Position numbers and translations under genes: made by a program
IMG/VR virus record: IMGVR_UViG_3300047509_000156
Span: 32,001-96,000 of that record
Origin: a virus
DNA length: 64,000 nucleotides
Reading direction: 5' to 3' (one strand)
The notes under the pieces: model-generated
What the model saw: the letters and a program-made list of their open reading frames with translations, nothing else
What the model was told of the DNA's origin: nothing
Databases searched by the model: none
In this document: positions 11,227 to 61,670 of the stretch, one piece after another
Layout: each line of letters begins with the position of its first letter
How positions within the stretch are numbered: the stretch's first letter is position 1

Positions 11227-12003
11227 CTATTCTAGCGGCGGCAGGCCGACAGCGGCGCGGCCATAGGCGATGCAGGCTTTCGACAGATAGGCGTTGGCGT
11301 CGATAATCGAGTTGTACCGGCGGCGAAGAGGCTCTCGAAACCCATCTCTTTCGTCAACTTCTCCTTCCAAGAGGCCAGCAACGCCTTTCACAATCATGCT
11401 TCTGTCTTCAGGACTGACATATGGATACTCGCCAAGGTATTCAAGAATACTGCAATACCAGCGGTAGTATTCCCTTCCCTCGAAAATTGGTACTACTGTT
11501 GACGGCGCACGGTCGCGTAGTACGACCTCCTCGATGGGGTGTTTGCTGAAGATAATGTCGGCGTGCTTGAGGAACCGTTCCTGCGTCAGGGCGATCCGGG
11601 CGATGAATCCACGACGGAAGACGACGCTCATATCGCCGGGACGCATATCGCGATAGAGAGGTTCGCGGTTGTGCAGGCACTGTAGCGGCATGTCGCCTGT
11701 CATCTCTTCCCAGACGAGTGGAAAAAGTTCTAACTCGCGGTAGAGGATATCCCTGGTGTCCATGTCGTCGCAAGCACAAGTGCCGTTTGTGTGCTGCCCA
11801 CCGCCACGCTTGCGGACACAGGAACCACAGGAGCATTTCTGACGCACCGGATCGAGCGTCAACTGGCCACGGATAAAATCGGCCAGGTTGTCGCGGCCGT
11901 TTTCCTCGAACCAGTCGGCCAGTGCCAGACGCGGTAGATCGTCTCGTGGGGATTCGAGGATAGAGTACATCAGGCTGACGCCGGTATCGACGGTCAATCG
12001 CAT
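11227..12003 (-). CDS. TIGR02996 domain-like protein
   Basis: ILESPRDDLPRLALADWFEENG...ADFIRGQL; FRRGF...HPIEEV; AGGAGG RBS. Confidence 0.85.
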   Translation of the reverse strand: MRLTVDTGVSLMYSILESPRDDLPRLALADWFEENGRDNLADFIRGQLTLDPVRQKCSCGSCVRKRGGGQHTNGTCACDDMDTRDILYRELELFPLVWEEMTGDMPLQCLHNREPLYRDMRPGDMSVVFRRGFIARIALTQERFLKHADIIFSKHPIEEVVLRDRAPSTVVPIFEGREYYRWYCSILEYLGEYPYVSPEDRSMIVKGVAGLLEGEVDERDGFREPLRRRYNSIIDANAYLSKACIAYGRAAVGLPPLE

Positions 12004-12145
12004 ATCCTCCTGGCGATCGTGGTCCAGTATGCCAGTTTTTTGCGGAGTATCGGCGCACAGGTGATAACCGTGCCGTCCTTCACGGTAAAGCCGGCACAAA
12101 GATAGGACGTGGTTACTTGATACAGGCCATCAGCAAGGTTTGTTT

Positions 12146-12484
12146 TCACAGCTTAACCACACTGCCGTCGCAAATTTCGTTCAGGAACGGATATTCGGCA
12201 TTCTGCGGGTGATCGTAGTATTTCCTGCCGCAGTCCGAGCAGACGCAATCGCCACCGCAGCGGTCCCGGTCGAGGCGCGCCACGTCCTTACATCGCAGCA
12301 CCTCACGTGTCCTTGACGTGGCTACCTGTCGTCTCTCGACGGCGTGGAGCCAGCACAGATGGGTGAGGCTATCGCCTCACCCAGATGGGTGGGTTACTGG
12401 CAGGCTGGCGTCGGGAACGCTATCGCAATACTCCGTCGCCTCGTCGCAGAAAGCACACGTCAGGGATACTTCGGCTGGTTTCAT
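12146..12484 (-). pseudogene. Cys-rich ORF with one internal TGA (or two short in-frame genes)
   Basis: MKPAEVSLTCAFC...PSG*GDS...CVCSDCGRKYYDHP...ICDGSVVKL*. Confidence 0.4.
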
Positions 12485-12774
12485 CGACTGTCCTCGTAGT
12501 TGTTTCTCGTCAGATTACGGATCTCCGCATCAATTCCCTCGGAGTCGAGGGTAATGTGCGTTCTTGGTTTAGTGGCGAAGAACTCCTCGATCTTCTGCCG
12601 CACTTCACCGGCTGTCATGGTGCCCGGCCAGGTGGTGCGGTATTCCTTGAACTCGCTGTAGCATTCTCCGCAGATGTAGTAGCCGCACAGAAGGCCGCAG
12701 TGGGGGCAGGGGAAGTTCACAACGTCGCACATACAGTTCCCGCAGCCGTACCGGTGGCAGGCAAGTACGCTCAT
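12481..12774 (-). CDS. Hypothetical Cys-rich protein
   Basis: Several CxxC motifs; coupled to neighbours. Confidence 0.6.
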   Translation of the reverse strand: MSVLACHRYGCGNCMCDVVNFPCPHCGLLCGYYICGECYSEFKEYRTTWPGTMTAGEVRQKIEEFFATKPRTHITLDSEGIDAEIRNLTRNNYEDSR

Positions 12775-13211
12775 TTATTCATCTCCTCTTCCATCAACCC
12801 CGTCGCTTCGAGGAAGAACGCCGCGATACCTACGCGAAGCATATCCACGGGAGAAACTCCATTATCCTTGGCTGCCTTTATCGTTGCGGCGGCAACGATG
12901 ATCAGACTGTCGTCTTTCATGGCGCGGTGGATGTCGTTCTCGCTGAACCAGGATTCCCCCATGCACTCCAGTCGCCGCATCCGCCCAGGAGCGGGCGCCT
13001 TGAGTGTACCCTTCTCCACATTGACGCCAATATTAGCTTCGAGTAGTCCCAGAATGCCGACAACGAAGGCGTCCTTGACGAGCCTCTGCACGTCGGTGTC
13101 CTCCGGATCGAACGGATGCCGGCGGATCAGGTCCTCGATGCCTCCTCCACGGCGAAGGTTCTGCCAGAGAGCGTCGGCAACGGCAGCGTGTTCTTCAGGT
13201 ACGTCGGACAT
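12771..13211 (-). CDS. Hypothetical protein
   Basis: AGGAG RBS, downstream of promoter motif. Confidence 0.65.
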   Translation of the reverse strand: MSDVPEEHAAVADALWQNLRRGGGIEDLIRRHPFDPEDTDVQRLVKDAFVVGILGLLEANIGVNVEKGTLKAPAPGRMRRLECMGESWFSENDIHRAMKDDSLIIVAAATIKAAKDNGVSPVDMLRVGIAAFFLEATGLMEEEMNK

Positions 13212-13241
13212 GGGTGTTCTCCTGGGTGGGCGACTCTATCC

Positions 13242-13268
13242 TATACGCGGCCGTCGCTATTGTGTGAC
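13242..13268 (-). promoter_or_regulatory. GTCACA-N15-CGTATA motif copy 1
   Basis: Exact motif, intergenic, oriented to 12771..13211. Confidence 0.8.
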
Positions 13269-13282
13269 AGGAAACCCGGACG

Positions 13283-13468
13283 TTACGGCGTCATCCCCAT
13301 TCGATATGTCTTCTGTAGGCTCATCCGAGACTGCCAGGATTTACCCTTTTCCTGCCTCCAGATCCACAGGTAGCACAGCCTATCGCACCAGACGCAGTAG
13401 ACATCCCACGTCCCCCACGGATCGGCGACGGGGACAGGCTTGCCGCAGTGGGGGCAGGGGAAGTTCAC
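13283..13468 (-). CDS. Small Zn-finger protein
   Basis: GTG start NFPCPHCG...CVWC. Confidence 0.5.
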   Translation of the reverse strand: MNFPCPHCGKPVPVADPWGTWDVYCVWCDRLCYLWIWRQEKGKSWQSRMSLQKTYRMGMTP

Positions 13469-14108: not shown

Positions 14109-14186
14109 GTTTTCGCTCGTCCACCACTCCTCTTCGCCCGCCTCGCGGATTCGGCAAGGCAGTGCGTTATCCTCGCAGTACCACTT

Positions 14187-14516: not shown

Positions 14517-14559
14517 AATAGTTTCCCTCTGCGCAGACCTTCCCCCGGCACACTCCCTC

Positions 14560-15095: not shown

Positions 15096-15114
15096 GATAC
15101 AGTATCTCCCGCTT

Positions 15115-15951: not shown

Positions 15952-16008
15952 GTTTCTCCTTCGCTGACTGGCCACGGATGTTAGAAGCATCGCGTGGCCT
16001 TTCCCTTA

Positions 16009-16276: not shown

Positions 16277-16277
16277 C

Positions 16278-25269: not shown

Positions 25270-26769
25270 TCATGGGCCGACAGTGGCGCAGGAAATTGAA
25301 TCGCAAAAAGCCACTGTTCCGGGGTGTCTTGGACCTCCGTCGCCCGTGAGCACGCACCTGACCGCGCATTGGTCGCTCGACAGAAGTGTATAGCCCACAT
25401 CGGTTTGTACGAACTCAATTGCGCCGAAGAGGCCCAAGAGGTAGTCCGCCCATCCCGAAAAAAGTACATACGTCGCGTTCGTCACTCCACCCCGATTGTT
25501 GACGACCTGCACCGTCTTCGTCACCGGGTAGCCCGCCAGGTGCGGAATCGCCTTGCCCTTCAAATCGCGCACCAGCTCGTACACGAAGCCGCCCACTTGC
25601 CCGGCCCCGGAGTAAGGCGTCCACCGCGTCTGACTGAACGCATAACTCAACTGCGGCCTCATGATGAAGCCGCCGTTGTCCTGGTCGGGATTGCCATTGT
25701 TTTCCTCGACCACCATCGGGAAGGAGTAGGCGTCCTGCGGCGAGAGTTGGTTCGGTGAACCCGACGCTCCCGTCTGCGTCACTAGCGCCAACCCGTATGG
25801 GTTGCCCGAAGCGCTGCCCATCGTGGCCAGTCCCAGCGGTTGTGTCTGAGAGCCGTTGCCCTGGAGGAGGTAGAAGTCCAACTGCAAGGCGACACTCTTG
25901 AAGATGTCCGCCCTGATCAGGGCCTCGGTAGCCGGCGCCCCGTAGCGCAGCAACTCGTTGGGCAGCACCACCACGGTGATCATCTTGCGGGCGTTGAGGT
26001 TCAGCGCCCCCGTCGTGACCGTGGTTGGGGTTGTCTGGTTATTTTCCAGTTGCCCCTGGCTGGCTGTGGGCGTGATGAGGCGGGGGTAGGTGATTCGGCC
26101 CGAAGGACCCAGCGGCACGACGGTGGCGCCGGCGTTGAGCAATGCCTCGCGATTTCTCAGGAGTTCGATGGGCGGCCCGAAGGTTGGGGGAGGGACAAAG
26201 GTGCCGCCGCCGGCCTGGTCGGTCCAACTCTGCGCGGGTAGCGCGGCTGCCTTGCCGCCGTAGCCGGAAAGATCGTCGCGCAGGCCCTTGTTGTCGTAGG
26301 CTTTCTTGTACCAGTGCTGGATCTCTTCGGGGTCGGCACGATCGACGCCATGCTGAAGGAGCGATTTCATCTCGTAGTAGTCATCGTTGCTCATCATCTC
26401 CGAGTTGAACCCATCGGGCCACAGAGGGGCGAAGCAGTGCCCCGCTCCGGCGAACTTCTGGAAGCCGCCGCCGGCCTGGAAGGTAGCGTTGCGGATCTTT
26501 TCGGAGAGCATTCCCTCGACCTTGCAGAACTCAGGAGGGATGTGGCCGCCCACCATGCCCAGCATCTTGCCGAAGTAGAAGCCGCGCGAGGTCATGATGT
26601 TTTCACCACGCCGGGCATAGGGCGCCGATCCTGCGGGGGCGCCGAGAACTGGCTGCGCCCCCGTGTCGCGGGCGGCGGCGAGGCGGGCGTCGGTCGTCTC
26701 GATCTTGTTGAGCCGGCTTTCCATGTTGGACAGGACCTTGAGGACCTGTTCAGTGGCGGATTCTGGCAT
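25270..26769 (-). CDS. Major capsid protein (HK97 fold)
   Basis: GGTFVPP, IELLR, LNARK, PNELL, LLQGNGS..PLG, LAGYPV, VRCV...DGG motifs. Confidence 0.9.
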   Translation of the reverse strand: MPESATEQVLKVLSNMESRLNKIETTDARLAAARDTGAQPVLGAPAGSAPYARRGENIMTSRGFYFGKMLGMVGGHIPPEFCKVEGMLSEKIRNATFQAGGGFQKFAGAGHCFAPLWPDGFNSEMMSNDDYYEMKSLLQHGVDRADPEEIQHWYKKAYDNKGLRDDLSGYGGKAAALPAQSWTDQAGGGTFVPPPTFGPPIELLRNREALLNAGATVVPLGPSGRITYPRLITPTASQGQLENNQTTPTTVTTGALNLNARKMITVVVLPNELLRYGAPATEALIRADIFKSVALQLDFYLLQGNGSQTQPLGLATMGSASGNPYGLALVTQTGASGSPNQLSPQDAYSFPMVVEENNGNPDQDNGGFIMRPQLSYAFSQTRWTPYSGAGQVGGFVYELVRDLKGKAIPHLAGYPVTKTVQVVNNRGGVTNATYVLFSGWADYLLGLFGAIEFVQTDVGYTLLSSDQCAVRCVLTGDGGPRHPGTVAFCDSISCATVGP

Positions 26770-29113: not shown

Positions 29114-29310
29114 GGCTTCCTCTCGGCTTTCCTTGAGAGCAGTTCGGACTGACGGAAGCAGCGTTCCGTCAACTCCTCGACGAGTTTCTTGAGGCGGGTG
29201 TTCTCCTCGCAGACAGCAACGATCACCTTGGGCGGTGCGTACTGCCAACTGTGGCCGAGGCGTACTGCCTCTCTAGCGTCGATCAGGAGTTCCTCGGTGG
29301 TACGTGTCAT
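29110..29310 (-). CDS. Hypothetical coiled-coil protein
   Basis: Coupled ORF. Confidence 0.5.
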   Translation of the reverse strand: MTRTTEELLIDAREAVRLGHSWQYAPPKVIVAVCEENTRLKKLVEELTERCFRQSELLSRKAERKP

Positions 29311-29840
29311 AGGTCCGAGAGCCCTTTCTTGCGAAACTCTTCGATCCACCTCTGCCAGTCGTCGGCCAGGGCAAAGAGGCGACGCCGAAGGTAGGAGACG
29401 TACTTTTTGTGGTAGAAGACGACTGTGGTGTCCTTCTCCGGGCGGACGGCGTAGTAGGCATAGGCTCCGATCAATCTTCTCTCTTCGTGGGTCGCTAGAG
29501 AGAATTCCTGTACGCTGGCGCGAAAGCCACCAATCATGACCGTACCAGGACCACTCACCTTCTCCTTATCGACCCGCAGCCACAGGGATTTGGGCGTCCA
29601 CCACGCCAATAGGGACATTCTCCAACCGTCGCCGTACTCTGTGTGGATCACAGTTCCAGGGCGGTGGCTAGTAACACGATCCGCCTTGCAGAACGCGACG
29701 ATGGGCGTGGCGATCCTGGCGCGCCGACGCCAGGATTTCCGTATCTGCACCTCGCCGGGACAGTTCTCCTCCAGCCAGTCGGCAAAGGCCAGCCACGACA
29801 CCGGGTCGAGTCCTCTCTGGAGATGCCGTGGCGGTTTCAC
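29307..29840 (-). CDS. TIGR02996-like N-terminal motif protein
   Basis: DPVSWLAFADWLEEN. Confidence 0.6.
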   Translation of the reverse strand: MKPPRHLQRGLDPVSWLAFADWLEENCPGEVQIRKSWRRRARIATPIVAFCKADRVTSHRPGTVIHTEYGDGWRMSLLAWWTPKSLWLRVDKEKVSGPGTVMIGGFRASVQEFSLATHEERRLIGAYAYYAVRPEKDTTVVFYHKKYVSYLRRRLFALADDWQRWIEEFRKKGLSDL

Positions 29841-33426: not shown

Positions 33427-33472
33427 GGTTGTTTCCCAGGCAGCCGGCGGTTCTCCTTGCCCACTATCTCCA

Positions 33473-33572
33473 GTTTCAATCCACAGCCAGCCCAGCGGCC
33501 GGCTGCACCGTCTCATCAGTCCGATCAGATTGGTGGTTTCAATCCACGCCTAACCCACATGGCCAGGCGCAC
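33473..33572 (-). CRISPR. CRISPR mini-array: two degenerate type I-C-like repeats and one 27-nt spacer
   Basis: GTGCGCCTGGCCATGTGGGTTAGGCGTGGATTGAAAC - CACCAATCTGATCGGACTGATGAGACG - GTGCAGCCGGCCGCTGGGCTGGCTGTGGATTGAAAC; intergenic; flanked by a 14-bp inverted repeat. Confidence 0.75.
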
Positions 33573-33597
33573 GATTCCGCCGGCTGCCTGTTGATCG

Positions 33598-38679: not shown

Positions 38680-39719
38680 TATTTGACCCCCATCTGATCG
38701 TAGGCGTAGCGCGTGACGCGGCCCGTCTTGTGGCATTGCTTGCAGCCTTCTCCCCGGCAGAGAGGACAGGCACAGTGGCACTTGGCCGAGCGCACTGTCT
38801 CACAGACCGACTTGAGTTTGTTGATGGCGCTCTTGCGGCGGTCCATGTCAAGGAGCCAGGGATCGTCCGGCATCGTCTCGGTGAACTTCATGAGTTGCCG
38901 GCACCACGACTCCAGTTTACTGTTGAGCCGCTTGATCTGTTGTTCGGTCGTTTCATCTTCGGGCGCTTCCGGCTCCTGGTTCAAGTCTTCATCAGTCTGC
39001 TCGGATAGCGTCTTGCTCTTTTTTTTGCCGCTGCCCTTGCCGAGATTGCGCTTCCTTGCCTTTTTACGCTTGTCTTCACAGGAGGCACAACCGACCACGA
39101 CGCCGTTCTTCTTACACTGCGGGCAGAGGATCGGTTTCCCACCACCGGAAATCTGAGCAATCGTCTGCCCTGACTGGCCGTTGAGGATGACGGAACGGGC
39201 GCCATCGCCTTGCTCGGCAGCGGCAGCATCGACGCCGGCAGCGAACTGAGTGGCGTTCTTGACTGTGCGCTCAGAAACGCCGTGCTCTGAGGCCAGTTCT
39301 GCCGCCGTTTTATTTCCTCCCTGTTGGGGAGGAATCGGGCAAAATTTGCCCGATTCCTCCCCAACAGGTGCGCTATTGCTACTGCGCGTAAGTTCTCTCT
39401 CCTTACCGAGATAGTACAATTTTTGCTCTGGAGTCGCGTTTCGCCTTCCGAACTGGTTTTGGATAATCCAGAGCAATGCCGCTTCGCGTGAAGGTAGCTC
39501 GATTTTCCTTGTAGGAATTTTGAGATGCTTTTCCTCTGCAATATCGAACCGCGTGTGCCCGTCGCCAAGAATCGGTTCGTCTTCTCCTGGCAGTTGAAGG
39601 AGGACAAGCGGGTCGATGTGCTGGCTCTTTTCGATCTCAGCTTCCAGGGTGCTGCGCTCCTCTTTGGTCAGGGCGGGGAGATAGGACTTGAACTCCTGAT
39701 CGATCTTGAAGGATTGCAT
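38679..39719 (-). CDS. ParB-like N-terminal domain protein
   Basis: IDQEFKSYLPAL, ILGDGHTR, NQFGRRN, LASEHGVSERTV. Confidence 0.75.
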   Translation of the reverse strand: MQSFKIDQEFKSYLPALTKEERSTLEAEIEKSQHIDPLVLLQLPGEDEPILGDGHTRFDIAEEKHLKIPTRKIELPSREAALLWIIQNQFGRRNATPEQKLYYLGKERELTRSSNSAPVGEESGKFCPIPPQQGGNKTAAELASEHGVSERTVKNATQFAAGVDAAAAEQGDGARSVILNGQSGQTIAQISGGGKPILCPQCKKNGVVVGCASCEDKRKKARKRNLGKGSGKKKSKTLSEQTDEDLNQEPEAPEDETTEQQIKRLNSKLESWCRQLMKFTETMPDDPWLLDMDRRKSAINKLKSVCETVRSAKCHCACPLCRGEGCKQCHKTGRVTRYAYDQMGVK

Positions 39720-42840: not shown

Positions 42841-43482
42841 TTATCCCCCATACGTCTTGTTCGTCTCGTTAAAGACCCAACCCTGGTTGGCGGCGTACTC
42901 GTTGATCATCTTCCAGACGATCTTCTTATCTTCCTTGGCCATGCCGGATAGCTGCTCCAGCTTGTCGTTGAAGTCGTCGCGCTTCGGTCCCAGGTGCAGA
43001 TACTGCTCCCAATCGCGTACAGTTTGGCTGCGCGGGCAGGCCCAGTCCGGCAATGCTGGTTTTTTGACGAACTGGCGTTTCTGCGTGTCGTAGTCGCACC
43101 ATTGCTTGGGCAGGTCGTACAAGTACCTGCCGATTCCCCACTTAACAGCCGTTCGCTTGATCGCGTCGGATACCGCTGCCTTCATCTTGTCGCCGCTATC
43201 TGGCTGTTCGCTTGGTCCGCCAACGTCCTGCTTGGGAATCCACTCGTCGCCGATCCGCAATGACAGGATACACTGTACGTTGCCATCGGAAAGAGCGGCG
43301 TACTCGTCCTTCCAGCCGTCGATCCCCATAACTTCGTCAAGTCTCTCCATGACGCATCTCGCGTCGATGTACGCGATGGCGAGGGCGCGGTTGCCGCTGA
43401 CAGCCTGCGGCTTGAACGACACCTCGTCGATGGCGAACGGTTCTCGCAATTGACGAGCGATTAAGTCCGTTGGCTTGCTCAT
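42841..43482 (-). CDS. Rad52/Rad22-family single-strand annealing protein (Sak-like)
   Basis: AYIDARCVMERLDEV.G...W, KQDVG, K.AVSDAIKR.AV.WGIGRYLY. Confidence 0.92.
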   Translation of the reverse strand: MSKPTDLIARQLREPFAIDEVSFKPQAVSGNRALAIAYIDARCVMERLDEVMGIDGWKDEYAALSDGNVQCILSLRIGDEWIPKQDVGGPSEQPDSGDKMKAAVSDAIKRTAVKWGIGRYLYDLPKQWCDYDTQKRQFVKKPALPDWACPRSQTVRDWEQYLHLGPKRDDFNDKLEQLSGMAKEDKKIVWKMINEYAANQGWVFNETNKTYGG

Positions 43483-43982
43483 GTCTTCTCCTTATTTGGC
43501 AAAGGTAATTGTTTCTTCGCTTGCTCTGTCTCGATACGCAGGGCGGCTTGCTCTAGGGCGTCCAGAACTTCAGGCGGAACTTCGCCCGACCGATCCCATC
43601 CATGATTGGCGGTAAAGGTCCATCGTGGCAGGGTGAGTGCATCAACCTCTAGGCTGCGACTGGTTAGCGCCATGTTCCACGATGGGCATTCAATCGTTAT
43701 GAACGTATCAGTGGTATGCTCGCCCTTGTACTTGTGGACCTTGACCGCGCTCGACCGGCATTTTCTATAGCGCCGGAAGAACTCGCTCGGGTTCACCCTG
43801 CCGTCCAGCAGCAAGCCGCGCATTCGCTCTGACACGAGCGCCTGCCGCCGCCGCTTGACCGCCTCGCTCAACTTGCCGTCCTCCTCAAAGAGATCGGCCA
43901 GCGCCAGACAGTAGAGCGGATCGGGCAGTTCTCCCTGAACCAGTATCGTCAGCCGGACGTAGAGGTCGCCGCGTTCGCTCAT
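43479..43982 (-). CDS. TIGR02996-like N-terminal motif protein
   Basis: PDPLYCLALADLFEEDG. Confidence 0.55.
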   Translation of the reverse strand: MSERGDLYVRLTILVQGELPDPLYCLALADLFEEDGKLSEAVKRRRQALVSERMRGLLLDGRVNPSEFFRRYRKCRSSAVKVHKYKGEHTTDTFITIECPSWNMALTSRSLEVDALTLPRWTFTANHGWDRSGEVPPEVLDALEQAALRIETEQAKKQLPLPNKEKT

Positions 43983-44001: not shown

Positions 44002-44028
44002 TATACGCATCTTTCTCCTCGTTGTGAC
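44002..44028 (-). promoter_or_regulatory. GTCACA-N15-CGTATA motif copy 5 (heads the recombination operon)
   Basis: Exact motif before AAGGAGG RBS. Confidence 0.8.
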
Positions 44029-45617: not shown

Positions 45618-45722
45618 TCACTGGAGTGAAGAGATGAACCGCGACCTTGTTGGTTTGTGTGAGGCGATCCTTGCCGGCGATCTGACGGCTATTACATCCC
45701 GCACCCCGACGAGGCCAAAAGA

Positions 45723-47303
45723 GTGCGATCGTACCTGCTGATCACTCTGATCCTCCTCTTCGCCTCCTTTCTCCCTGCCGTCGATGCGGTGCCACAGCCA
45801 AGTCTACAACTGGCTGTGGCACTTGCTAAACTGGACGCCTCGCGCCTTCCTGAGAAGGTCCGCCTCACCTGCCGCTACTACTACACGGAGAAACAGGGTA
45901 AGGACCTCGAAGAGATCCGCGTCGCGGCACGCTACCACTTCAACCTGCACAGCCACGTCAAGGAACCTGTCGATGTAGTCGAGATCACCCCCTGGTTGTG
46001 GCGCTTCGACTGGGCTGATGCACGCAGAAGGGGCGATCTTCAGATTCTGGCAACCCTGGAGACGGCGGCGACGCTCGATCACTTCTTCCACGAACACACA
46101 CCCACGAAGGTTGATGTGGTCGTTAATACCCTCTGGCCTGGAGGGGTCTTTGCCGGCGACGGAAAGTTCTACGAACGCGGAGAATCGCCTGTCAGGGTCC
46201 GCGCTGGCGGCATCGTCCATACGAGCGCTGCCTGGCCCCCTCTGAGTGATATCAAGGAACTGCGAGAGTTGCTCCAAAGCGAGGTGCCGATACTTCACTT
46301 CGGCTGGTTCATGGCGCAGACTTCCCGCCAGCGTCCCTACGGCCGCGCCAAACAGAACGGTCTAGGTTACTACAACCTCCACGGATTAAAATCCAGGGAC
46401 GATTATTTTAAGTTGATCAAACTGAATATAAAGGACTCCGAGGATATCGACGAGCATATCCGTGCTGCTCTGGAGAAGTCGGGCATCAACCCCAACGATG
46501 GGGCACGACAGATCGCTCGCTTCCAGGCGCTGACGGGCGGATCGTGGGGCACCTTCGACACGGACGACACGAGCAATGGCAACAACGCCCTGGACAAGCC
46601 AGTCGTCGGCACTTTCAAGCACAACGCTGAGGAATGGTTTTCCCACCTGCCCAACAAGACACCCGTCACTCTGGCCTGTAACGACAAGGGGGTGTTGCAG
46701 GAGTTCGCACCAACGGACAGTCACGGTTTCAACGACAGTTCGACTCTCAACGCCAGCCAGGACCCCCGCGTCCACGTCAACCTGGCCTGCCTCCGCTGTC
46801 ACTCGGCAGATATTTTGCAACCTATTCGCGATAGTTTTCGTGAGTCCTTCAAAGCGGGCGATTGGTTAGGATTAAGCGCCTACAAGGATAGCGTGCGACG
46901 AGAACTAACTAGGCAATACCTCGGGAAAATCAACCCGCAAATAGAAGCAGACAATGCTGTTTATGCCGAGGGCATAAGACAGGCATCGATTACTTCTGCT
47001 TACCCGAAAGGATTGACCGTTACGCGCGCGGCTGCGTTGTACGCGCGAAGTTTTCACAATTACGTCGATACGCCTGTTACTCTTGAGCGTGCCGCAGCCG
47101 AACTGGGTTGCGCTCCGGTTGAGTTCCTTGATTCCTTGCGGTTCGCAGCGTCGCCACCTCCTGGCACTGTCGCTATTATTGACCTGCCTTTGAGCAGGTT
47201 CCTCACGAGAAAGCCGCTGACAATTGGCAGACAGACGTGGGAAGGCCGCTTCGCAGCAGCAAACCAGGCGCTTGCGACTTGGAGGCTGTCGAGGAAGAGG
47301 TAG
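45723..47303 (+). CDS. Secreted protein with one CxxCH heme-binding motif
   Basis: Signal peptide; ACLRCH. Confidence 0.7.
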   Translation: MRSYLLITLILLFASFLPAVDAVPQPSLQLAVALAKLDASRLPEKVRLTCRYYYTEKQGKDLEEIRVAARYHFNLHSHVKEPVDVVEITPWLWRFDWADARRRGDLQILATLETAATLDHFFHEHTPTKVDVVVNTLWPGGVFAGDGKFYERGESPVRVRAGGIVHTSAAWPPLSDIKELRELLQSEVPILHFGWFMAQTSRQRPYGRAKQNGLGYYNLHGLKSRDDYFKLIKLNIKDSEDIDEHIRAALEKSGINPNDGARQIARFQALTGGSWGTFDTDDTSNGNNALDKPVVGTFKHNAEEWFSHLPNKTPVTLACNDKGVLQEFAPTDSHGFNDSSTLNASQDPRVHVNLACLRCHSADILQPIRDSFRESFKAGDWLGLSAYKDSVRRELTRQYLGKINPQIEADNAVYAEGIRQASITSAYPKGLTVTRAAALYARSFHNYVDTPVTLERAAAELGCAPVEFLDSLRFAASPPPGTVAIIDLPLSRFLTRKPLTIGRQTWEGRFAAANQALATWRLSRKR

Positions 47304-52223: not shown

Positions 52224-52856
52224 TCATCCTCCCACTTGTGGCGGTTTGATCGGCGGCAAGCCAACGAGTTCTCTGCCCCAGGCGACACAGGCGACCGATA
52301 GCGCCCAGAAGGCAGCTTCCTCGCTGTCATGGCGCGGCTCTTTGTGGGCGCCGCGTTCGTTGAAACGAAGTCCAGGCAGTTTCATGCCGATATAGAGCGG
52401 TAAGATATCGCCAGTCCAGTAATGCCTTTGATTACCGCCGATCAGCCATCGCCAGACTTCTTTGCCTCTGGTTCTCCTGTTCTGAAGCCTCATCGGCTTC
52501 TTATCAGTCAGCCTAACTTCAGTGATCGGCTGCTCAGAGAACAGCGTTTCGGCGTGTTTGAGGAAGTCTTCACAACTCATCTCGACGCCAACCACAAAAC
52601 CTCGATGGACGGTCCCCGAGGCGTTGAGGAACCTTCTCTTCTCCGGCGAGCGCCAAGACTCTGCTATACCGATAGCGCCGTCGAGTGTGCAGTGCAGTTG
52701 CCCGTATGGTTCCAGGACTCTCTCGCGGATGTACGCTGCACGCTCGATCTCGCCGGCCTCGTCGATGGCGTCGGCGTAGACGAGACGAACGTCGTCCCTG
52801 TCTGGTTCTTCGAGGATGGCCCACAGGAGGCTATCGATGGTGGGCTGGGTGATCAT
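52224..52856 (-). CDS. TIGR02996 domain-like protein
   Basis: LLWAILEEPDRDDVRLVYADAIDEAGEIERAAYIR; RGFV; paralogous to 11227..12003. Confidence 0.85.
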   Translation of the reverse strand: MITQPTIDSLLWAILEEPDRDDVRLVYADAIDEAGEIERAAYIRERVLEPYGQLHCTLDGAIGIAESWRSPEKRRFLNASGTVHRGFVVGVEMSCEDFLKHAETLFSEQPITEVRLTDKKPMRLQNRRTRGKEVWRWLIGGNQRHYWTGDILPLYIGMKLPGLRFNERGAHKEPRHDSEEAAFWALSVACVAWGRELVGLPPIKPPQVGG

Positions 52857-53131
52857 GCTTCCTTCTCCAGTTGCGCTACCACATCCAGTACCTGTTCGCG
52901 AGACAATTCCCAGCGGTCCTTGGGCAAGCCGTAGACTACCTTGAACTTGAACTCCTGGTAGAGCGCACAGGCTCGCTCGTCATCGTTGAGGGCGTCGGCC
53001 AGGATCGCTAGGGCCAATTGAGAGGGGCCGCTCCCGGCGTAGCCCCATTCGTAGCCGGTTTGGCTGTGGTTGCGTAGATCGAGACGCGGCAGCAAGGCGT
53101 ATCTGCGGTAAGCGTCCTCCACATCTATCAT
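52853..53131 (-). CDS. DUF6166-like protein (start uncertain)
   Basis: LRNHSQTGYEWGYAGSGPSQLALAIL. Confidence 0.75.
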   Translation of the reverse strand: MIDVEDAYRRYALLPRLDLRNHSQTGYEWGYAGSGPSQLALAILADALNDDERACALYQEFKFKVVYGLPKDRWELSREQVLDVVAQLEKEA

Positions 53132-53138
53132 CACTCCA

Positions 53139-53711
53139 TTACCGACGCGCAGGCCGTGGTAGCGTTCGGCTATGCGTACATCCCACCACGCCAGACTGCC
53201 GGCCACGCTGATGTACTTTCCGTAGCCGGGCGAGAGGAGCATCTTGAAGATCGCATAGATAGCCGAGTAACCGAACAGCGTGATCGGCCGGCAGATTTCG
53301 CCGCGACGATTGGTCGTCAGTCTCTTCCGCGTACCTCTCTGGAGCGTGTGGCTTTCGTAGTCCGGCGTCCATCCAGGCACAGTGCGCCAGGATGGAGCGG
53401 TCAAAGCCAGGGGGGATGGGCGGCCATTCCGTGTAGGAGAGGGTGAACGCCGGTTTGCACTCGGGTTCCTCCAGCACCGCCAACCCCTGGGCATGGACCT
53501 TCTCCAGCCAGTCGCTGGCGATGACCAGATGAAGACGCTCGTGTGGCTCATACCTCTTCTCGCGGAAGTGATTCTGCCTCAACTTGCTGGGTGAGCCGAA
53601 GAATAGCTCGATCTTCCAGTGCGGCGGGAAGAAGTGCAAGCCCTCGATCACCGTGAGGGTGTCGCGGTAGCGCTGGGCGAGGACGGATTGCTTGGCGGCG
53701 CGGGTGCTCAC
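53139..53711 (-). CDS. Hypothetical protein
   Basis: DWLEKVHAQGLAV resembles DWWQTVEKEGLSI in 54445..54930. Confidence 0.5.
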   Translation of the reverse strand: MSTRAAKQSVLAQRYRDTLTVIEGLHFFPPHWKIELFFGSPSKLRQNHFREKRYEPHERLHLVIASDWLEKVHAQGLAVLEEPECKPAFTLSYTEWPPIPPGFDRSILAHCAWMDAGLRKPHAPERYAEETDDQSSRRNLPADHAVRLLGYLCDLQDAPLARLRKVHQRGRQSGVVGCTHSRTLPRPARR

Positions 53712-56303: not shown

Positions 56304-56387
56304 TATACGCAGTTGTCTCCTTCTTGTGACAGAGAGATCGGTAGAATCCAGAGAATATCGGTCACAGTCCGGATGAATCGGCGTATA
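56304..56387. promoter_or_regulatory. Divergent pair of GTCACA-N15-CGTATA motifs (56304-56330 minus; 56361-56387 plus)
   Basis: Two exact copies at the strand switch. Confidence 0.85.
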
Positions 56388-56399
56388 TCAAGTGTCGCC

Positions 56400-56436
56400 A
56401 TTTTCCCCCGGCCAAAATCCGGGGGCGGATTGAAAC
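56400..56436 (+). CRISPR. Solitary CRISPR-repeat-like unit D
   Basis: ATTTTCCCCCGGCCAAAATCCGGGGGCGGATTGAAAC, perfect 7-bp stem, 37 nt, in 5' UTR. Confidence 0.7.
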
Positions 56437-56458
56437 AAGAGAGAAAGGACGGTGAAAC

Positions 56459-57065
56459 GTGGAGACGGCAGAACCCAAGGAATCCTGGCGGATTGTCTGG
56501 CGAGCGGCGGCGGATTTGATCTCTCTGGAGGAACTGCAATTTATTCAGGTGACATTGGCGAGCGATGATCCGAGATGGGTCCAGGGCGCCACGACCAGTC
56601 CTCCCCCCTTTGCAGGCTGTGGCAGATTGGCCCGTGGAAGCCGCCTGTCTGTTCGGCCTATGTGGAGTGTTCAGCGGCGGCGGTTGGGGAGAGGCAATCG
56701 TCTCGGACACTGAGGATCGGTTTGCGAGACTCTGTTTCGACGTGGACCAGAAACTAGGCGAGCCTGCCGGCGTGAGATTTTTGCTCAACTGGCATGATGA
56801 GGCGCCCCGTGAGGAGGTCCGCCAGTCCTTACTCACAGAGATTACGGACGCCATCTCCTCCCGACTGTCCTCCCTCCGCGACCGTCTCGCCAATCTGGGC
56901 GGGCAGCGTATCCTCGCCGAGGTGGAGTTGCAGGACTTCCTCGCGGAAGGTGACACGGGACTCTCGCCGGACCCGTCCCGTGGCAAGGCGGCACAGGAAC
57001 GCCTCGACACCATCAACGCCGAGTACGCACAGGTGCGCGAGGAATACGCTAGGGCTACGGCGTGA
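56459..57065 (+). pseudogene. Gemmataceae-type conserved protein split by a +1 frameshift
   Basis: ESWRIVWR...QGATTSPPP | LQAVADWPVEAAC...LGEPA..RFLLNW. Confidence 0.6.
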
Positions 57066-57071
57066 ATTGTT

Positions 57072-57098
57072 GTCACAACTACGAGAATATGCCGTATA
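57072..57098 (+). promoter_or_regulatory. GTCACA-N15-CGTATA motif
   Basis: Exact motif. Confidence 0.8.
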
Positions 57099-57133
57099 TC
57101 AGGGTGTCGCCCGGAAGCGTAAGGAGAAGAACC

Positions 57134-57406
57134 GTGAGCAAGAAGACAGCGAAAGGTGTTCGCTCAAAGGTAACTCTCTACATCGACAGCGGCGCCGTGC
57201 AGGTCTTTGCTGGACAGTTGCATCCCGCCGTGTTCACCGAGGAGGAAGCCTGCCGCATTCTCCTAGCGCATAAGGATCTCCTTGCCGCGTGTCGCAGCGC
57301 CCTGACACTCGTTGCCACAATGCAGAGTATGCCGCCGTCTGTGGATTGCATTGAGAGCGTTCTCGAGCAACTCGAATCCGCCATCGCCAAGGGAGAATCG
57401 CCGTGA
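57134..57406 (+). CDS. Hypothetical protein
   Basis: AAGGAG RBS; DLLAAC...AIAK. Confidence 0.6.
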   Translation: MSKKTAKGVRSKVTLYIDSGAVQVFAGQLHPAVFTEEEACRILLAHKDLLAACRSALTLVATMQSMPPSVDCIESVLEQLESAIAKGESP

Positions 57407-57627
57407 TCCAGACTGTGAATAAACTTGTCGGCAAGATCGCCGCCCGTGCCGCCGAGTTGGCCAACATGAAAATCAACCGGCTCCGTCTGGAGGCACCAGC
57501 CTACGAGGAGAGCGTCGCTGCTCATTTGAGGATCGCCAAGTTGGATTTCCCTGACCGAGGAAGACTCATCGAGGCGATTCTTCTGGAGGAGTTCAGCGAG
57601 GAGTTTGATCGGAGTATTGATCCATGA
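57403..57627 (+). CDS. Hypothetical protein
   Basis: Coupled ORF. Confidence 0.55.
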   Translation: MIQTVNKLVGKIAARAAELANMKINRLRLEAPAYEESVAAHLRIAKLDFPDRGRLIEAILLEEFSEEFDRSIDP

Positions 57628-57935
57628 CACCCACCACCCCCATCCGTGGCCTCCACGATGTCACGCGAATCGCCAGTGGCTACGGCATCCCCTGGCAGGT
57701 CGCCCTGACGCCCGAATGTTTCGAGAGGTGTATTCGCGTCGGCGTCTTCTGGAGCAAAGAAGAGGACCGCCTCGCCGACGTGATTTACGCCCTTGCCGTC
57801 GCCCTGAGAAGCTGCCGCTGGTGCTGGCGTATCTACGTACCCTCGGGGACACGAGTTCCCGACGTGGTTAAACTGCGGGCACGGCGGGAGGAGAATAACG
57901 AGGAAGTACGAATTATCGTGGACCTGGAGGAGTGA
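57624..57935 (+). CDS. Hypothetical protein (DUF6573-like)
   Basis: DVT..A..YGI...VALT....ERCI...RL.DV. Confidence 0.55.
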   Translation: MTPTTPIRGLHDVTRIASGYGIPWQVALTPECFERCIRVGVFWSKEEDRLADVIYALAVALRSCRWCWRIYVPSGTRVPDVVKLRARREENNEEVRIIVDLEE

Positions 57936-58133
57936 TGAACAAATACGAACTGGCAGCCAAGATCGGCGATCTGGCTGAAGAGGCTGGAGAATCCTACGCC
58001 GCCGTTGTCCTGCTCGCCCTGGCCGGAGCGGTAATGATTGGACTGGAGAGAGAGTTGGCCGATGTTTGTGTTCTCGTCTCGCAGAGACAGAAGGATTTCT
58101 GCGACAGAAGTCTCAAGGCAAAGGATAACTAGC

Positions 58134-58622
58134 ATGGGAGACCGTAGCCGCTTCCGACTGTTCGCTCAACTGATCGCCGAGAGGTTCCCTGACCGCAAGG
58201 CGCGAATCGCCGACGTGGCCTGTGGCAAGGGGCAACTGCACAGTGAGTTGCACCTCCTGGGTTATCGCAACGTCGTCTCCTGGGACAAGCGGAAGAGGAA
58301 CCTGCGGCGACTTTCAGTGGGATTCCGCTACGAGTGGTTCGACTACCGAAACGCTCCCAGGGGTTACGATCTGGTGGTTGGGATGCACCCCGACGAGGGC
58401 ACGGACCACATAATCCTGTACGCCGCCAAGCACAAGGTTCCTTTCCTCGTCTGCCCCTGCTGTGTGCTTCCAAGTGCTGCGGAGTACGGCGGGCAGCGTG
58501 CCTGCTACACGGACTGGATGCGTCATCTCGTCGGTTTGGCACGTTCCCGAAGGATGACGACCGACACCGTATCTTTGCCGATGGATGGACGAAAACAGGT
58601 AATCGTGGGAGGCTGTCGATGA
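58134..58622 (+). CDS. Class I SAM-dependent methyltransferase
   Basis: IADVACGKG, VVGMHPDEGT, VCPCC. Confidence 0.8.
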   Translation: MGDRSRFRLFAQLIAERFPDRKARIADVACGKGQLHSELHLLGYRNVVSWDKRKRNLRRLSVGFRYEWFDYRNAPRGYDLVVGMHPDEGTDHIILYAAKHKVPFLVCPCCVLPSAAEYGGQRACYTDWMRHLVGLARSRRMTTDTVSLPMDGRKQVIVGGCR

Positions 58623-58954
58623 GCGTCATGAACCTGCGCTGGCGTTCCGATTCCAAGGTGGAACTGACCCTGTGCTGGCCGGACGGTCGCAGTTTCGTTA
58701 CCGTTGCCACGAGAAACGGTGATCACATTGACATCGACACGCCTTATTTCCCCGACAAAGGCGACATCGATTCAGTCGAGGCGATACGCGACGTGACGCA
58801 GTGGTTGGCGCTGGGAGCCTGCTGTGCCCAGATGCTTGTCGGGTTCGACCACGCCACACTGGAAGATCTCGTCGCCGGCAGGAAGATGCTCCAGATTCCC
58901 AACCCGATCATCTCCATCACAATCGGGGTGGTGGACGCTGTGGAGGATAAGTAA
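58619..58954 (+). CDS. Hypothetical protein
   Basis: Coupled ORF. Confidence 0.55.
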   Translation: MSVMNLRWRSDSKVELTLCWPDGRSFVTVATRNGDHIDIDTPYFPDKGDIDSVEAIRDVTQWLALGACCAQMLVGFDHATLEDLVAGRKMLQIPNPIISITIGVVDAVEDK

Positions 58955-59454
58955 TGTCAGAACGATTCATGACGCCCGAGAACGGGCTTTGCTCCTTTTT
59001 GCCGAAACGAAACGATTTGAGGTATTTAAGAGTAAAAAAGGAGCAAAGCCCCGAGAACGCCGACGCCTTCGTGGATTTTCCGCCCGCCCGCAAGGAATGC
59101 CCGAATCATCTTCCCGATGGGAGGCTTTGTGCCCGCTGCCACGGTTTCGGCGGCTGGAACCTGGAATTGAACGCCTACCCGAAAACGAAGGAGCAAGAAG
59201 ATGCGATCCGCGACAACCTTCGCAGGTGTCCGGTGACGAACCTGCCCGGTCCCGACATGACGAACGCCGAGTTCCGGCATCACTATGTCCACTTCCGCGC
59301 CAGTTGCTCCAACTGCAACGGCTGGGGTTGGGTCAAGAAGGAACAGGGCGATCATGTCCACGAGTGGGTGGAGAGCCGCAATGTGGGGAAATGCCTGAAC
59401 GAGTACACCTGTAAGACGTGCGGTGAAAGGCAGACGGTGGATTCGTCGGACTAG
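58954..59454 (+). CDS. Zn-finger protein
   Basis: CARCHGFGGW, CSNCNGWGWV, CKTCG..VDSSD. Confidence 0.7.
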   Translation: MSERFMTPENGLCSFLPKRNDLRYLRVKKEQSPENADAFVDFPPARKECPNHLPDGRLCARCHGFGGWNLELNAYPKTKEQEDAIRDNLRRCPVTNLPGPDMTNAEFRHHYVHFRASCSNCNGWGWVKKEQGDHVHEWVESRNVGKCLNEYTCKTCGERQTVDSSD

Positions 59455-59837
59455 CGGATGGTATTGCGCCCGGCCTGCTGGTCGGGTGTGGATTGAAACG
59501 CCTGAAGCGCCATGATCTCCTGTTGCTTCCTCTCGATCTCCCTGGCCTTCTCCTCGCTCTTGCGGAGTTCCGCTGCCTCGATGGCGGCGGCCAGGTCATC
59601 GGCACAGTGCCCGATCAGTGCCTTGGCCTGGTCGATCGACAGGGTGATCTCTTCGTGGGTCGCCGTGGGTGTCGGTCCGGAGTGGTGCATAAGAGGAGGA
59701 AGGGGCCGGCGGATCTTGATGGACGTACCGGAGGCGAGGATCAAGATGGCGTCGGGAGGGAGGGCTTTCTTGGCCATGTGGGACAACCTTACGGGTGGGG
59801 GCGGAATCGGCTCTGGGAGGCGGTAAACGTGGTTCAT
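59451..59837 (-). CDS. Hypothetical protein
   Basis: Coupled ORF. Confidence 0.55.
   Translation of the reverse strand: MNHVYRLPEPIPPPPVRLSHMAKKALPPDAILILASGTSIKIRRPLPPLMHHSGPTPTATHEEITLSIDQAKALIGHCADDLAAAIEAAELRKSEEKAREIERKQQEIMALQAFQSTPDQQAGRNTIR
59463..59499 (+). CRISPR. Solitary CRISPR-repeat-like unit E (type I-C-like)
   Basis: ATTGCGCCCGGCCTGCTGGTCGGGTGTGGATTGAAAC, 10-bp stem with G-U pairs, 8 nt after a stop codon. Confidence 0.75.
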
Positions 59838-60034
59838 TCCTTCGGCTTCATGATGTCGGCGTACATGGACTTGGCGTCCTCGTTGAGGGAGTCGGCCAGT
59901 GACTTACCGCCCTCGGCGCGACGCTGCTCGGAGTATCCAATTGCAACTGCTTGTGCTTCTGGTTTTCCCGCCCGGCGTTCCGTGGCGATGTTCTCGGATC
60001 GTGCTTCGTCCGAAGGGGAATGGTTAAGCGGCAT
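59834..60034 (-). CDS. Small phage protein (MPL...SENI...GKP..QAVAI type)
   Basis: Motif I recognise from phage head-gene neighbourhoods. Confidence 0.6.
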   Translation of the reverse strand: MPLNHSPSDEARSENIATERRAGKPEAQAVAIGYSEQRRAEGGKSLADSLNEDAKSMYADIMKPKE

Positions 60035-60383
60035 GGCTGGCTCCCTCTTTCTCTGGGGCGACGACGGCGAGCAGGTGGCTCTCCGGCATGATAACCAATG
60101 TTTTGCCGTTATGCTCAACCTCGGAGCCCTGGTAGCGCGGGTAAAGGACGGTGTCGCCGACCTTAACCGTCAGAGGGTAGCGGCCTTCCGTCGCGTATCG
60201 CGTCTGGGTCTTGGCGGAGAGCATCTCGGGCACTACGAGTCCTGGCCCAACAGCAACCACGGTGCCGCGCTGCGGCTTATCCTTGGCCGTATCAGGGATG
60301 TACAGACCGCTCTTGGTCCGGTCGGGTGCCTCCAGAGGATCGATGACAACGCGGTCGTTCAGAGGAGAGATCGGGTAACTCAT
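60024..60383 (-). CDS. groES: Co-chaperonin GroES
   Basis: PLNDRVV, TKSGLYIPDTAKDKPQRGTVVAVGPG, VKVGD.VLY..Y.G.E. Confidence 0.95.
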   Translation of the reverse strand: MSYPISPLNDRVVIDPLEAPDRTKSGLYIPDTAKDKPQRGTVVAVGPGLVVPEMLSAKTQTRYATEGRYPLTVKVGDTVLYPRYQGSEVEHNGKTLVIMPESHLLAVVAPEKEGASHAA

Positions 60384-60404
60384 GGAATTACTCCTGGTTT
60401 CGTG

Positions 60405-60431
60405 GTCACAGGTTACTACGAGTAGCGTATA
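60405..60431 (+). promoter_or_regulatory. GTCACA-N15-CGTATA motif
   Basis: Exact motif at strand switch. Confidence 0.8.
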
Positions 60432-60465
60432 TGACTCGTCGCCCGTCAGCAACACGGAGAGAAAG

Positions 60466-60851
60466 ATGAATCACATTGAAGCCTTGCGGAATCTCCAGCA
60501 GGAGACTGGGCACCCCGGTCACGAACTGGGTACGTTCCTGCTCCAGAACAGCAACTCGCTGCCTTACCTCGCGGAGCAGTTGAAGTTTCAATCCCCTCCT
60601 TCGCGGGGCACTTCTGCGGACTCAAGGAGAAGAACGATCTGGACGCACACCGCTGGCGCGATTACGAATTGGTGGAAGTCGGATGGATTAACGGCGTGAA
60701 TCCGAAGACGGCCCGCTCGCTTGTTGAGGCCGGCGTTCTGGTCGAGGACATGCCTTTCGATATGGACGCGAACACCAACTCCCATGTTCGCCTACCACGG
60801 CTGGAAGAGGTGTATCCGAGAATCGGCAAGCCGCTGATCGATGTTCTTTGA
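60466..60851 (+). pseudogene. Hypothetical gene apparently frameshifted at a CRISPR-repeat-like insert
   Basis: Two ORFs join in frame if 41 nt containing unit F are removed. Confidence 0.4.
60585..60621 (-). CRISPR. Solitary CRISPR-repeat-like unit F (type III/I-D-like)
   Basis: GTCCGCAGAAGTGCCCCGCGAAGGAGGGGATTGAAAC, 37 nt, GT start, CCCC/GGGG stem next to handle. Confidence 0.7.
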
Positions 60852-61157
60852 CTACGGCAGACGAATCTGCCCGCCCAGTAATCGCCTCAAGGCGTGAATA
60901 ATCTCTGCCCGCCGGGAACGCCGGTTCTCGGCAGCCCTGGCGTCCACCCGCGATAAGAAAGCGAGGCTTATACTTCTGAACGTGCATCCCAGCAGTCCCT
61001 CATTCTCCTCGCTGTCGAGGTCCACGACGGACAGCGGCGGCCGGTCGAGGTGGGACGCGACGGCAGCGAGGACGACGGCCTTGCGGGTTCTTCCCAGCCG
61101 GGCCGCTTCCCGATCAAGGCCGGCGACGATCCAGGAGGGGATCTCGACATAGAGCAT
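60852..61157 (-). CDS. Tandem ribbon-helix-helix regulator
   Basis: LDREAARLGRTRKAVV and VDARAAENRRSRRAEI. Confidence 0.65.
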   Translation of the reverse strand: MLYVEIPSWIVAGLDREAARLGRTRKAVVLAAVASHLDRPPLSVVDLDSEENEGLLGCTFRSISLAFLSRVDARAAENRRSRRAEIIHALRRLLGGQIRLP

Positions 61158-61292
61158 CTTCAGGCAGGCTTCGCGTTGCATGAGTCCAGCATATACAAAG
61201 CGCCCGAACCCAAGAAGGAGAAATACCAATGACAGCGACTCAGAAGATCCAGCGATTTCGCTCAAGATTGCCCTCAAAGAAGCCAAATAGCC

Positions 61293-61670
61293 ATGACCAT
61301 TACTGACCTGGAAAACCTGCTCGCCCTGGTCCTAGCGGACGGACCCGGCGCCGACGTGCAATTGATCGCTGCCGACGCGGCAGAGGACGCCGACCGTCCC
61401 TTCCTGGCTGAATGTCTGCGCTGGATGCACGCCGGCAAGAAGTGGCCAGATCATGGTGAACATTTGCCAGATGGAGCAACGTGGAGGTGGTATGAAAGCA
61501 GCGATCACCCCGAATCGTCGCGTCTCCCACAATGCGAGGGAGAGTTTGTTAAGTTCTGGCGTTCTTGGAAATGGCATGATTCGGTTGCTACTGCTATCCG
61601 TACCTTGTGGAGCGATTGGGAGACTGCCCGCAGGAGCGGATGGCAGCCGGAAAACCTGTCACAACCCTGA
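61293..61670 (+). CDS. TIGR02996-like N-terminal motif protein
   Basis: LLALVLADGPGADVQLIAADAAEDADRPFLAECLRW. Confidence 0.6.
   Translation: MTITDLENLLALVLADGPGADVQLIAADAAEDADRPFLAECLRWMHAGKKWPDHGEHLPDGATWRWYESSDHPESSRLPQCEGEFVKFWRSWKWHDSVATAIRTLWSDWETARRSGWQPENLSQP

Follow-up and report, generated by a model that had tools for sequence, protein, structure and literature searches.

Why does a virus encode several copies of TIGR02996 ('rpt_mate_G_obs', a repeat-companion domain), a short domain that in bacteria stands in front of leucine-rich repeats (LRRs), and encode them with the LRRs missing? The question is raised by a 64,000-nucleotide stretch of viral DNA, here called the window, which spans bases 32001-96000 of the 106,481-bp IMG/VR virus record IMGVR_UViG_3300047509_000156. 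An initial annotation of the window listed five such proteins, treated the DNA as phage and suggested that the proteins act as decoys or adaptors against an LRR-based immune or signalling network of the host. The observation is largely real and was confirmed in part, and its interpretation is partly supported. The record is rated complete and has direct terminal repeats (exact, 126 bp), and an HK97-type major capsid protein is encoded within the window; this is the genome of a phage and not the flank of a prophage. As judged from sequence comparison, the genes belong to an old modular family in which a virus-enriched architecture replaces the LRRs, which has expanded independently in different phages and whose genes carry expression signals. 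We propose that about nine small proteins of the phage, including the five of the window, form one multigene family, in which every member would combine a common head with a swappable body.

Membership was assessed with the NCBIfam TIGR02996 model, whose curated cut-off is 29.05 bits, and with an independent profile of the head, which drew on 79 database relatives (the phage's own copies being excluded) and was run on 1623 six-frame open reading frames (ORFs) of the genome. A second-round profile was made from only the five significant phage heads, alongside one combined profile. The copies, designated T1 to T9, are listed below in window coordinates unless marked as genome positions; N, M and C denote the three protein parts defined further on.

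T1 (P0001), 11227-12003, minus strand: 258 aa, N-M-C; TIGR02996 41.7 bits; independent head profile E 9e-18
T2 (P0002), 29307-29840, minus strand: 177 aa; TIGR02996 14 bits (E 0.032); independent head profile E 0.012
T3 (P0003), 43479-43982, minus strand: 167 aa; no TIGR02996 match; independent head profile E 2.3
T4 (P0004), 52224-52856, minus strand: 210 aa, N-M-C; TIGR02996 41.5 bits; independent head profile E 5e-15
T5 (P0005), 61293-61670, plus strand: 125 aa; no TIGR02996 match; independent head profile E 0.44
T6, beyond the right edge of the window: genome-wide family-model E 4.3e-5; independent head profile E 6.5e-6
T7, outside the window: independent head profile E 0.46; combined profile E 0.19
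T8, beyond the right edge of the window: genome-wide family-model E 1e-3; independent head profile E 0.0085
T9, genome 1558-2133, minus strand: found via its C-domain match; degenerate head (LLLLADDALDRGDEMRA)
The other three copies outside the window: genome 97464-98009 (plus), genome 100716-101222 (plus, weak) and genome 103600-104061 (minus)

All five ORFs of the initial annotation are open at these positions, but its count of five overlooked the four further copies outside the window. The assignment to TIGR02996 stands for T1 and T4, which exceed the curated cut-off, and not for T2, which falls below it, or for T3 and T5, which are unmatched. In the genome-wide search with the TIGR02996 family model T1 and T4 scored 45 bits each, and T2 was also recovered. 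With the second-round profile T3 was recovered at E 4e-6, and T5 reached E 0.0063 with the combined head profile. The T2 head is degenerate (WLAFADWLEEN) and that of T3 divergent (LALADLFEEDG), each being followed by a body unique to the protein, whereas T5 has a head-like LLALVLAD...LIAADAAED followed by a W-rich segment. T5 and T9 share 35% identity over 66 aa (pairwise E 7e-8), and T9 has a significant C-domain match; T5 is plausibly a paralogue of T9 and a borderline member of the family. With the starts chosen here the head lies within residues 8-60 of every copy, that is, at the N-terminus, and pairwise likeness among the phage copies is limited to the first ~50 residues, save for the pairs T1-T4 and T5-T9. 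Searches of the copies against Pfam and PHROGs returned only sub-threshold tetratricopeptide repeat (TPR) matches. By these profile scores T1, T4 and T6 are certain members of the family, T2, T3 and T8 are probable members and T5 and T9 plausible ones, while the case for T7 is weak; T3 and T5 are best called divergent TIGR02996-like heads, not members by the curated rule. A 36-aa segment at 45634-45741, put forward initially as a possible remnant, was rejected as a copy, with E > 70 in every profile and no TIGR02996 match.

T1 and T4 have more in common than the head. The two blocks noted initially as shared between two copies (RGF...FLKHA...PI.EV.L.D and LS.AC.A.GR..VGLPP) hold up well: in BLASTP T1 and T4 are 35% identical across 130 aa (E 2e-15), and both blocks are conserved throughout the family. 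With a profile made from four sequences, an exhaustive HMMER search retrieved 23,047 proteins at E <= 1e-3 and, at E <= 1e-30, 169 cluster representatives. The best 150 relatives are nearly all 200-330 aa long and matched end to end, and T1 and T4 match the 242-position profile over its full length. The plan of these proteins has three parts: N, the head; M, a junction of the form RRGF-helix-P(I/V)TxVxL; and C, a W-containing segment ending in A.AALS.ACVAYGR. Positions conserved in this short form are R..RGF, F..HA..LF...P, W and A.AALS.ACVAYGR. Sub-profiles for N, M and C matched T1 at E 4e-20, 4e-20 and 3e-15 and T4 at E 2e-17, 2e-22 and 3e-17, respectively; the remaining copies fail the M and C sub-profiles, with the exception of the C match of T9. 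The initial description of the copies as LRR-less heads is therefore correct as to the LRRs but incomplete for T1 and T4, which are not bare heads: they keep the host junction M and bear, where the host proteins have LRRs, a conserved C domain.

In T1 the parts are the head, a Cys-rich insert (CSCGSC...CAC), the RGF/FLKHA/PIEEV junction and a C-terminal LSKACIAYGR domain. T4 is the cleanest member of the N-M-C form and, unlike T1 and many other members, lacks a Cys-containing insert separating the head from the junction. Over their whole length T1 and T4 align with an unnamed short form of ~210-330 aa (P0007-P0155; viral loci such as L001-L011), to which T2, T3 and T5-T9 do not belong. A metagenomic protein, P0007, is 76% identical to T4. 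No Pfam family covers the N-M-C form, and its members carry at the Joint Genome Institute (JGI) only the label "uncharacterized protein (TIGR02996 family)". The first ~47 profile positions of PHROG 18306 match the head of the viral N-M-C protein L004 (E 2e-7), so a phage family with such a head has already been catalogued; that PHROG is unannotated, and T4 itself matches no PHROG at E <= 1e-3. Taken together, the alignments indicate that N-M-C is a widespread, virus-enriched architecture, not one peculiar to a single phage.

How do these proteins differ from those of bacteria? Viral proteins were sampled by a pattern scan of IMG/VR, which gave at least 66 loci, 65 proteins being compared, and bacterial proteins by a pattern scan of one genome per prokaryote species, which gave at least 80 loci. 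The bacterial loci listed belong almost entirely to Gemmataceae, Fimbriiglobus, other Planctomycetia, Archangium and other Myxococcota. The TIGR02996-LRR proteins of Gemmataceae, Fimbriiglobus and Myxococcota have the same ~45-aa N-terminal head as the phage proteins, and they share with T1 and T4 the RRGF...P(I/V)xx(V/L)xL junction; they then run on into LRR_6-type repeats, whereas the phage proteins carry an alpha/beta C domain or orphan bodies. The median length is 236 aa for viral and 372 aa for bacterial proteins. LRR Pfam matches were found in 1 of 65 viral and 48 of 80 bacterial proteins (LRR_6; Fisher p 1e-15), and the C domain in 33 of 65 viral and 1 of 80 bacterial proteins (Fisher p 2e-13), both comparisons referring to the loci listed and both ratios being approximate. 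Most proteins, viral and bacterial alike, possess the M junction (56 of 80 in bacteria, mostly in LRR proteins). None of the nine phage copies has an LRR Pfam match at E <= 1e-3, and none of the five in the window has one at E <= 10; LRR_6 has no match anywhere in the phage genome, although a positive control in genome G006 worked. The reported lack of LRRs is thus borne out for every copy and extends to viral TIGR02996 proteins in general.

The head itself is abundant in bacteria, with at least ~1350 matches in 108 of 121 Gemmataceae-family genomes; the C domain gave at least 31 matches in at least 14 of the 121, two genomes holding 10 and 6. In one Gemmataceae genome (G013) three N-M-C or N-C genes lie in tandem (G013:C1:3829499-3831562; L161 10464-12923), and the same genome has 10 C-domain copies and almost no LRR_6 matches. 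We picture the host proteins as LRR solenoids preceded by head and M junction, with tens of paralogues per genome. In the phage, other bodies would stand in place of the LRRs: the alpha/beta C domain in T1 and T4, a C-like segment without M in T5 and T9, and what appear to be unique orphan bodies in T2, T3, T6, T7 and T8.

This architecture bears directly on the decoy proposal, under which host TIGR02996-LRR proteins would be sensors or signalling proteins communicating through head-head or head-hub contacts, and LRR-less phage copies would poison the network as dominant-negative forms. The viral copies are systematically without LRRs and yet keep the head and, in T1 and T4, the host junction; expansion of the family, to several copies in a genome, took place independently in unrelated phages, as an arms race would predict; and the nearest structural neighbours of the ESM Atlas's own T4 model are planctomycete LRR_6 clusters, at a template-modelling score of ~0.5. 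The proposal nevertheless presupposes an immune or signalling role of the host proteins, and those sampled mostly bear LRRs without an evident effector domain. Moreover, a conserved C domain and diverse bodies suggest more than the occupation of a site. We consider simple decoy action unlikely. Still less probable, in our judgement, is a stronger form drawn by analogy, in which the TIGR02996-LRR proteins of planctomycetes and myxobacteria would be undescribed intracellular sensors signalling via the head, against which phages would repeatedly have evolved LRR-less blockers or redirectors, either head-only or with a new domain added, comparable to the adaptor-domain-only inhibitors that viruses use against animal innate immunity.

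Are the phage genes instead chance acquisitions? The neutral alternative takes the strong copies as chance pick-ups from a host and the weak ones as chance motif matches or decaying remnants. Several observations fit it. T2 and T3 are orphans, and the scores of T5 and T7 are low. A quick, poorly resolved and weakly supported tree of 45 N-M-C proteins intermixes host and viral copies, with 6-8 changes of label, so transfer does happen. Three 20-kb regions around host copies hold, taken as a set, TrwC relaxase, RepA-type initiator, integrase and IS66 transposase genes, which hints at mobile elements around the host copies. The distances point the other way. T1 and T4 are ~30-40% identical to the host and viral relatives fetched, with no close host homologue among them, and, P0007 apart, none of the 81 aligned relatives from the database exceeds ~40% identity; their terminal branches measure 2.26 (T1) and 1.8 (T4) substitutions per site. 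Because of this low identity and these long branches, T1 and T4 are not, on sequence grounds, recent host captures. The initial annotation had allowed that the weaker copies might miss the profile model and the strong ones be recent neutral captures: the weak copies do miss the curated model, but the strong ones are not close enough to any of the host proteins fetched. A recent tandem-type duplication as the origin of T1 and T4 was likewise rejected, the two not being sisters in the (poorly resolved) tree.

Further evidence against neutrality comes from the reading frames and the composition of the genome. Among the six-frame ORFs, 8 occurrences of the core motif [LIVMFYA][ASG]D[WFALY][LIVMFAY][EDQ][ED] were counted; 200 shuffles gave 0.6 on average and never more than 4, so that the motif is over-represented about 13 times. 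All nine frames are intact, and most are accompanied by a Shine-Dalgarno-like sequence, a promoter-like site of their own or ATGA coupling to a neighbour. With an architecture that is also conserved, virus-enriched and recurrent in unrelated phages, we regard neutral carriage as very improbable.

The expression signals and neighbours of the copies in the window include the following.

25270-26769, minus strand: HK97-type major capsid protein
42841-43482, minus strand: Rad52/22-family single-strand annealing protein (PF04098, 59.5 bits), its ATG overlapping the stop codon of T3 (ATGA)
44003-44028, minus strand: promoter-like site GTCACA-N15-CGTAT, 21 nt upstream of T3
52853-53551, minus strand: DUF6166 gene (PF19663, 93 bits, residues 131-226), its TGA overlapping the ATG of T4 (ATGA)

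Where 0.56 matches to GTCACA-N15-CGTAT would be expected, in the window, this promoter-like motif turns up 13 times (12 times exactly and once with a mismatch); the genome as a whole contains 25 exact matches. Its sites (e.g., 13243, 16010, 27932, 36006, 44003 and 56305-63443) precede many small genes and reach their highest density in the right arm, in which numerous small genes each possess one; sites also lie directly upstream of T6, T7 (1 mismatch) and T8 (1 mismatch). A Shine-Dalgarno-like sequence precedes the start of most copies, such as AGGAGG before the ATG of T1 and GGAGG for T3. T1 heads a leftward operon of large proteins without a family match, and T2 shares its strand with the capsid gene and lies ~2.5 kb upstream of it; the copies are spread over several functional regions. 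Their expression may be driven by the phage's own promoter cassettes or by translational coupling to the DUF6166 and Rad52-like annealase genes.

The true start of the DUF6166 gene is probably internal to ORF 52853-53551. DUF6166 was considered as a general partner of the family, since it adjoins T4 and lies ~1 kb from a host N-M-C copy (L162), but a phmmer search did not find it in four other phages or the viral loci, and the idea was dropped. Homologues of the Rad52/22-family annealase, at 50-57% identity, are present in the unrelated phages G003 and G004.

Is the set of genes particular to this phage? Five other IMG/VR records of 100-116 kb contain 2, 3, 9, 10 and 16 head matches. Three of them, compared in detail, have guanine-plus-cytosine (GC) contents of 54%, 65.6% and 73.5%, and whole-proteome BLAST found almost no genes in common with our phage, only scattered matches. 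The same mix of N-M-C, N-C, N-M and N-only copies occurs in these phages, and LRR_6 has no match in four of the five records (the positive control worked). The capsid protein of our phage has no match in the five records and no relatives in IMG/VR, and tblastn of T4 against GenBank phages (INPHARED) gave no match. These comparisons show independent expansion of head genes in several phage lineages that, by gene content, appear unrelated.

Heads also occur in much larger proteins. A 1687-aa phage protein (L172:11166-16229) has four heads and no other Pfam match; the metagenomic protein P0012, of 3119 aa, has nine heads and a Pfam match to a helix-turn-helix (HTH)/sigma-70 region 4; and P0038, of 3504 aa, has eight heads and a sub-threshold 2H-phosphoesterase/Acb1-like match. 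In the two metagenomic proteins the heads are interleaved among other domains; the head thus behaves like the opening of an independent module, which can be separate or strung together with others, and all three giants look like fused strings of head-plus-payload modules.

When the neighbours of the 65 viral genes were clustered, at least 24 of the 65 lay within 3 kb of a large terminase (TerL) or portal gene, across four TerL families and often in the order TerL-T-portal. Loci in which the head gene adjoins a terminase or portal gene include L003, L016, L034, L035, L042, L053, L054, L062 and L064-L066, among others. The enrichment is modest, the chance expectation being by our own estimate ~20% for a 40-60 kb genome, and the repeated immediate adjacency is nevertheless notable. 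In the complete 109,753-bp phage G003, which has terminal repeats and 16 TIGR02996 matches (L164-L169), three copies fall in the first 2.7 kb and one in the last 350 bp, positions typical of first-injected genes.

The synteny with terminase and portal genes prompted a further explanation, in which the head recruits proteins to the procapsid or portal region and the bodies are injected with the DNA. Beyond that proximity and its recurrence in four TerL families, virion cargo is suggested by the giants of 3119 and 3504 aa, whose 8-9 heads with HTH and sub-threshold Acb1/2H-like matches recall polyvalent proteins, by the copies at both termini of G003 and by T2 upstream of the capsid gene. Most copies in our phage, however, are scattered among small-gene promoter cassettes, one being coupled to a recombinase, and do not form part of a structural module. 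The same head occurs ~1350 times on LRR proteins encoded by host chromosomes, which cannot be virion cargo, and closeness to terminase genes may reflect a common insertion site for accessory genes as well as the chance level given above. We therefore regard cargo as unlikely; cargo and decoy each fit some of the observations and could both be true.

What, then, might the head do? Of all the parts, only the head is shared by ~1350 host LRR proteins and phage proteins of varied bodies, from which we infer that it may serve as a handle for docking, protein to protein, onto a conserved partner in the cell. Through it the phage would deliver payloads of its own to this partner or act there as a competitor, and the genes would act as takeover or counter-defence factors. 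We hold this reading, with the head as docking handle and the phage proteins as accessory host-interaction factors, at an even balance of belief and doubt.

A single-chain AlphaFold2 model of T4, computed from an 82-sequence alignment, reached a mean predicted local distance difference test score (pLDDT) of 87 and a predicted template-modelling score (pTM) of 0.84 at full length, with three N-terminal helices followed by an alpha/beta unit; M+C modelled alone reached pLDDT 90.3 and pTM 0.86. In T4 the M+C domain comprises residues 74-210. For the ~45-aa head the prediction is three short helices arranged much as in a TPR; its conserved core reads RL(V/A)xADWLEE.G. Against Pfam TPR_15 and TPR_7 the head scores 11-14 bits, the thresholds being 26-28, and in VIA-align TPR units are the best, although weak, matches to model residues 1-52 (Z 3.5-4.9). 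Foldseek against the Protein Data Bank (PDB) gave no match for full-length T4 or for M+C (best E for M+C 1.0), Foldseek of full-length T4 against BFVD gave a best E of 0.89, and the best VIA-align score of M+C against 48,161 chains was Z 3.0. The modelled M+C unit cannot be assigned to a known fold, an absent match being no proof of a new one. The nearest ESM Atlas clusters of T4 are mostly viral in taxonomy.

Several points weigh against docking. No partner of the head is known, and a literature search for TIGR02996 returned no paper. A search of 5.8e9 clusters yielded no homologue of T2 or T3, which leaves selection on their bodies unsupported, and T5 and T7 are, by profile score, weak members. 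The viral and bacterial scans used different patterns, which is why their ratios are approximate, and the C-domain search of genomes scored only part of its candidates and hence undercounts. Finally, neither a CRISPR-like repeat nor a TnpB-like gene in the window tied the phage to the sampled Gemmataceae. The TnpB-like protein reaches no more than 38% identity (34-38%) in 2 of 121 Gemmataceae genomes, and the CRISPR-like repeat had no match within 3 mismatches in the 121 Gemmataceae-family genomes. To judge from where the family occurs, the hosts are probably Gemmataceae-like planctomycetes and possibly myxobacteria.

Other features of the window, whose GC content is 56-62% and in which no tRNA genes were found, are a DNA methyltransferase gene and the following.

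1111-2511, minus strand: TnpB-like gene (OrfB_IS605 plus a Cas12f1-like TNB domain)
33437-33590, minus strand: two CRISPR-like repeats, each ending GTGGATTGAAAC, with a 14-bp inverted repeat on the flanks
36376-38781, minus strand: superfamily-2 helicase

Among the paralogous expansions of Gemmata-like planctomycetes, that marked by TIGR02996 ranks with the largest, and the replacement of LRRs in phages, together with the independent expansions, offers a handle on the family: the partner of the head should be fishable, and the phage bodies amount to natural swap experiments. The C domain of the virus-enriched form, with a confident model and no solved relative, is a reasonable target for structure determination, and it would be a new counter-defence fold if the host proteins did form a network of sensors. 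Should the function prove ordinary, a clean annotation of a widespread gene family in poorly studied viruses would still result.

Two groups of known proteins invite comparison with the phage copies. Viral pyrin-only or death effector domain (DED)-only proteins block host adaptor signalling, much as the decoy proposal supposes for the LRR-less copies, and in these inhibitors, as in viral F-box proteins, the viral version keeps a short helical docking domain and changes or drops the rest. There, as here, a large host family with LRR-type recognition domains shares the N-terminal domain. The analogy is functional: no sequence or fold relation of these proteins to the head was found, its top matches being TPR units (Z at most 4.9), F-box and death-fold chains were absent from the matches listed for the T4 head, and we know of no ubiquitin-like or inflammasome-like pathway in these hosts. 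The second group comprises the internal proteins of bacteriophage T4 (not to be confused with copy T4), which carry a capsid-targeting sequence, and phage polyvalent proteins, again as a functional analogy, here for the cargo explanation. In contrast to their setting in other phages, where head genes lie near packaging genes, the genes of our phage stand outside the packaging module. Like both kinds of protein, the TIGR02996 proteins place a repeated N-terminal element before diverse payloads, and P0012 and P0038 are giant forms of the same design.

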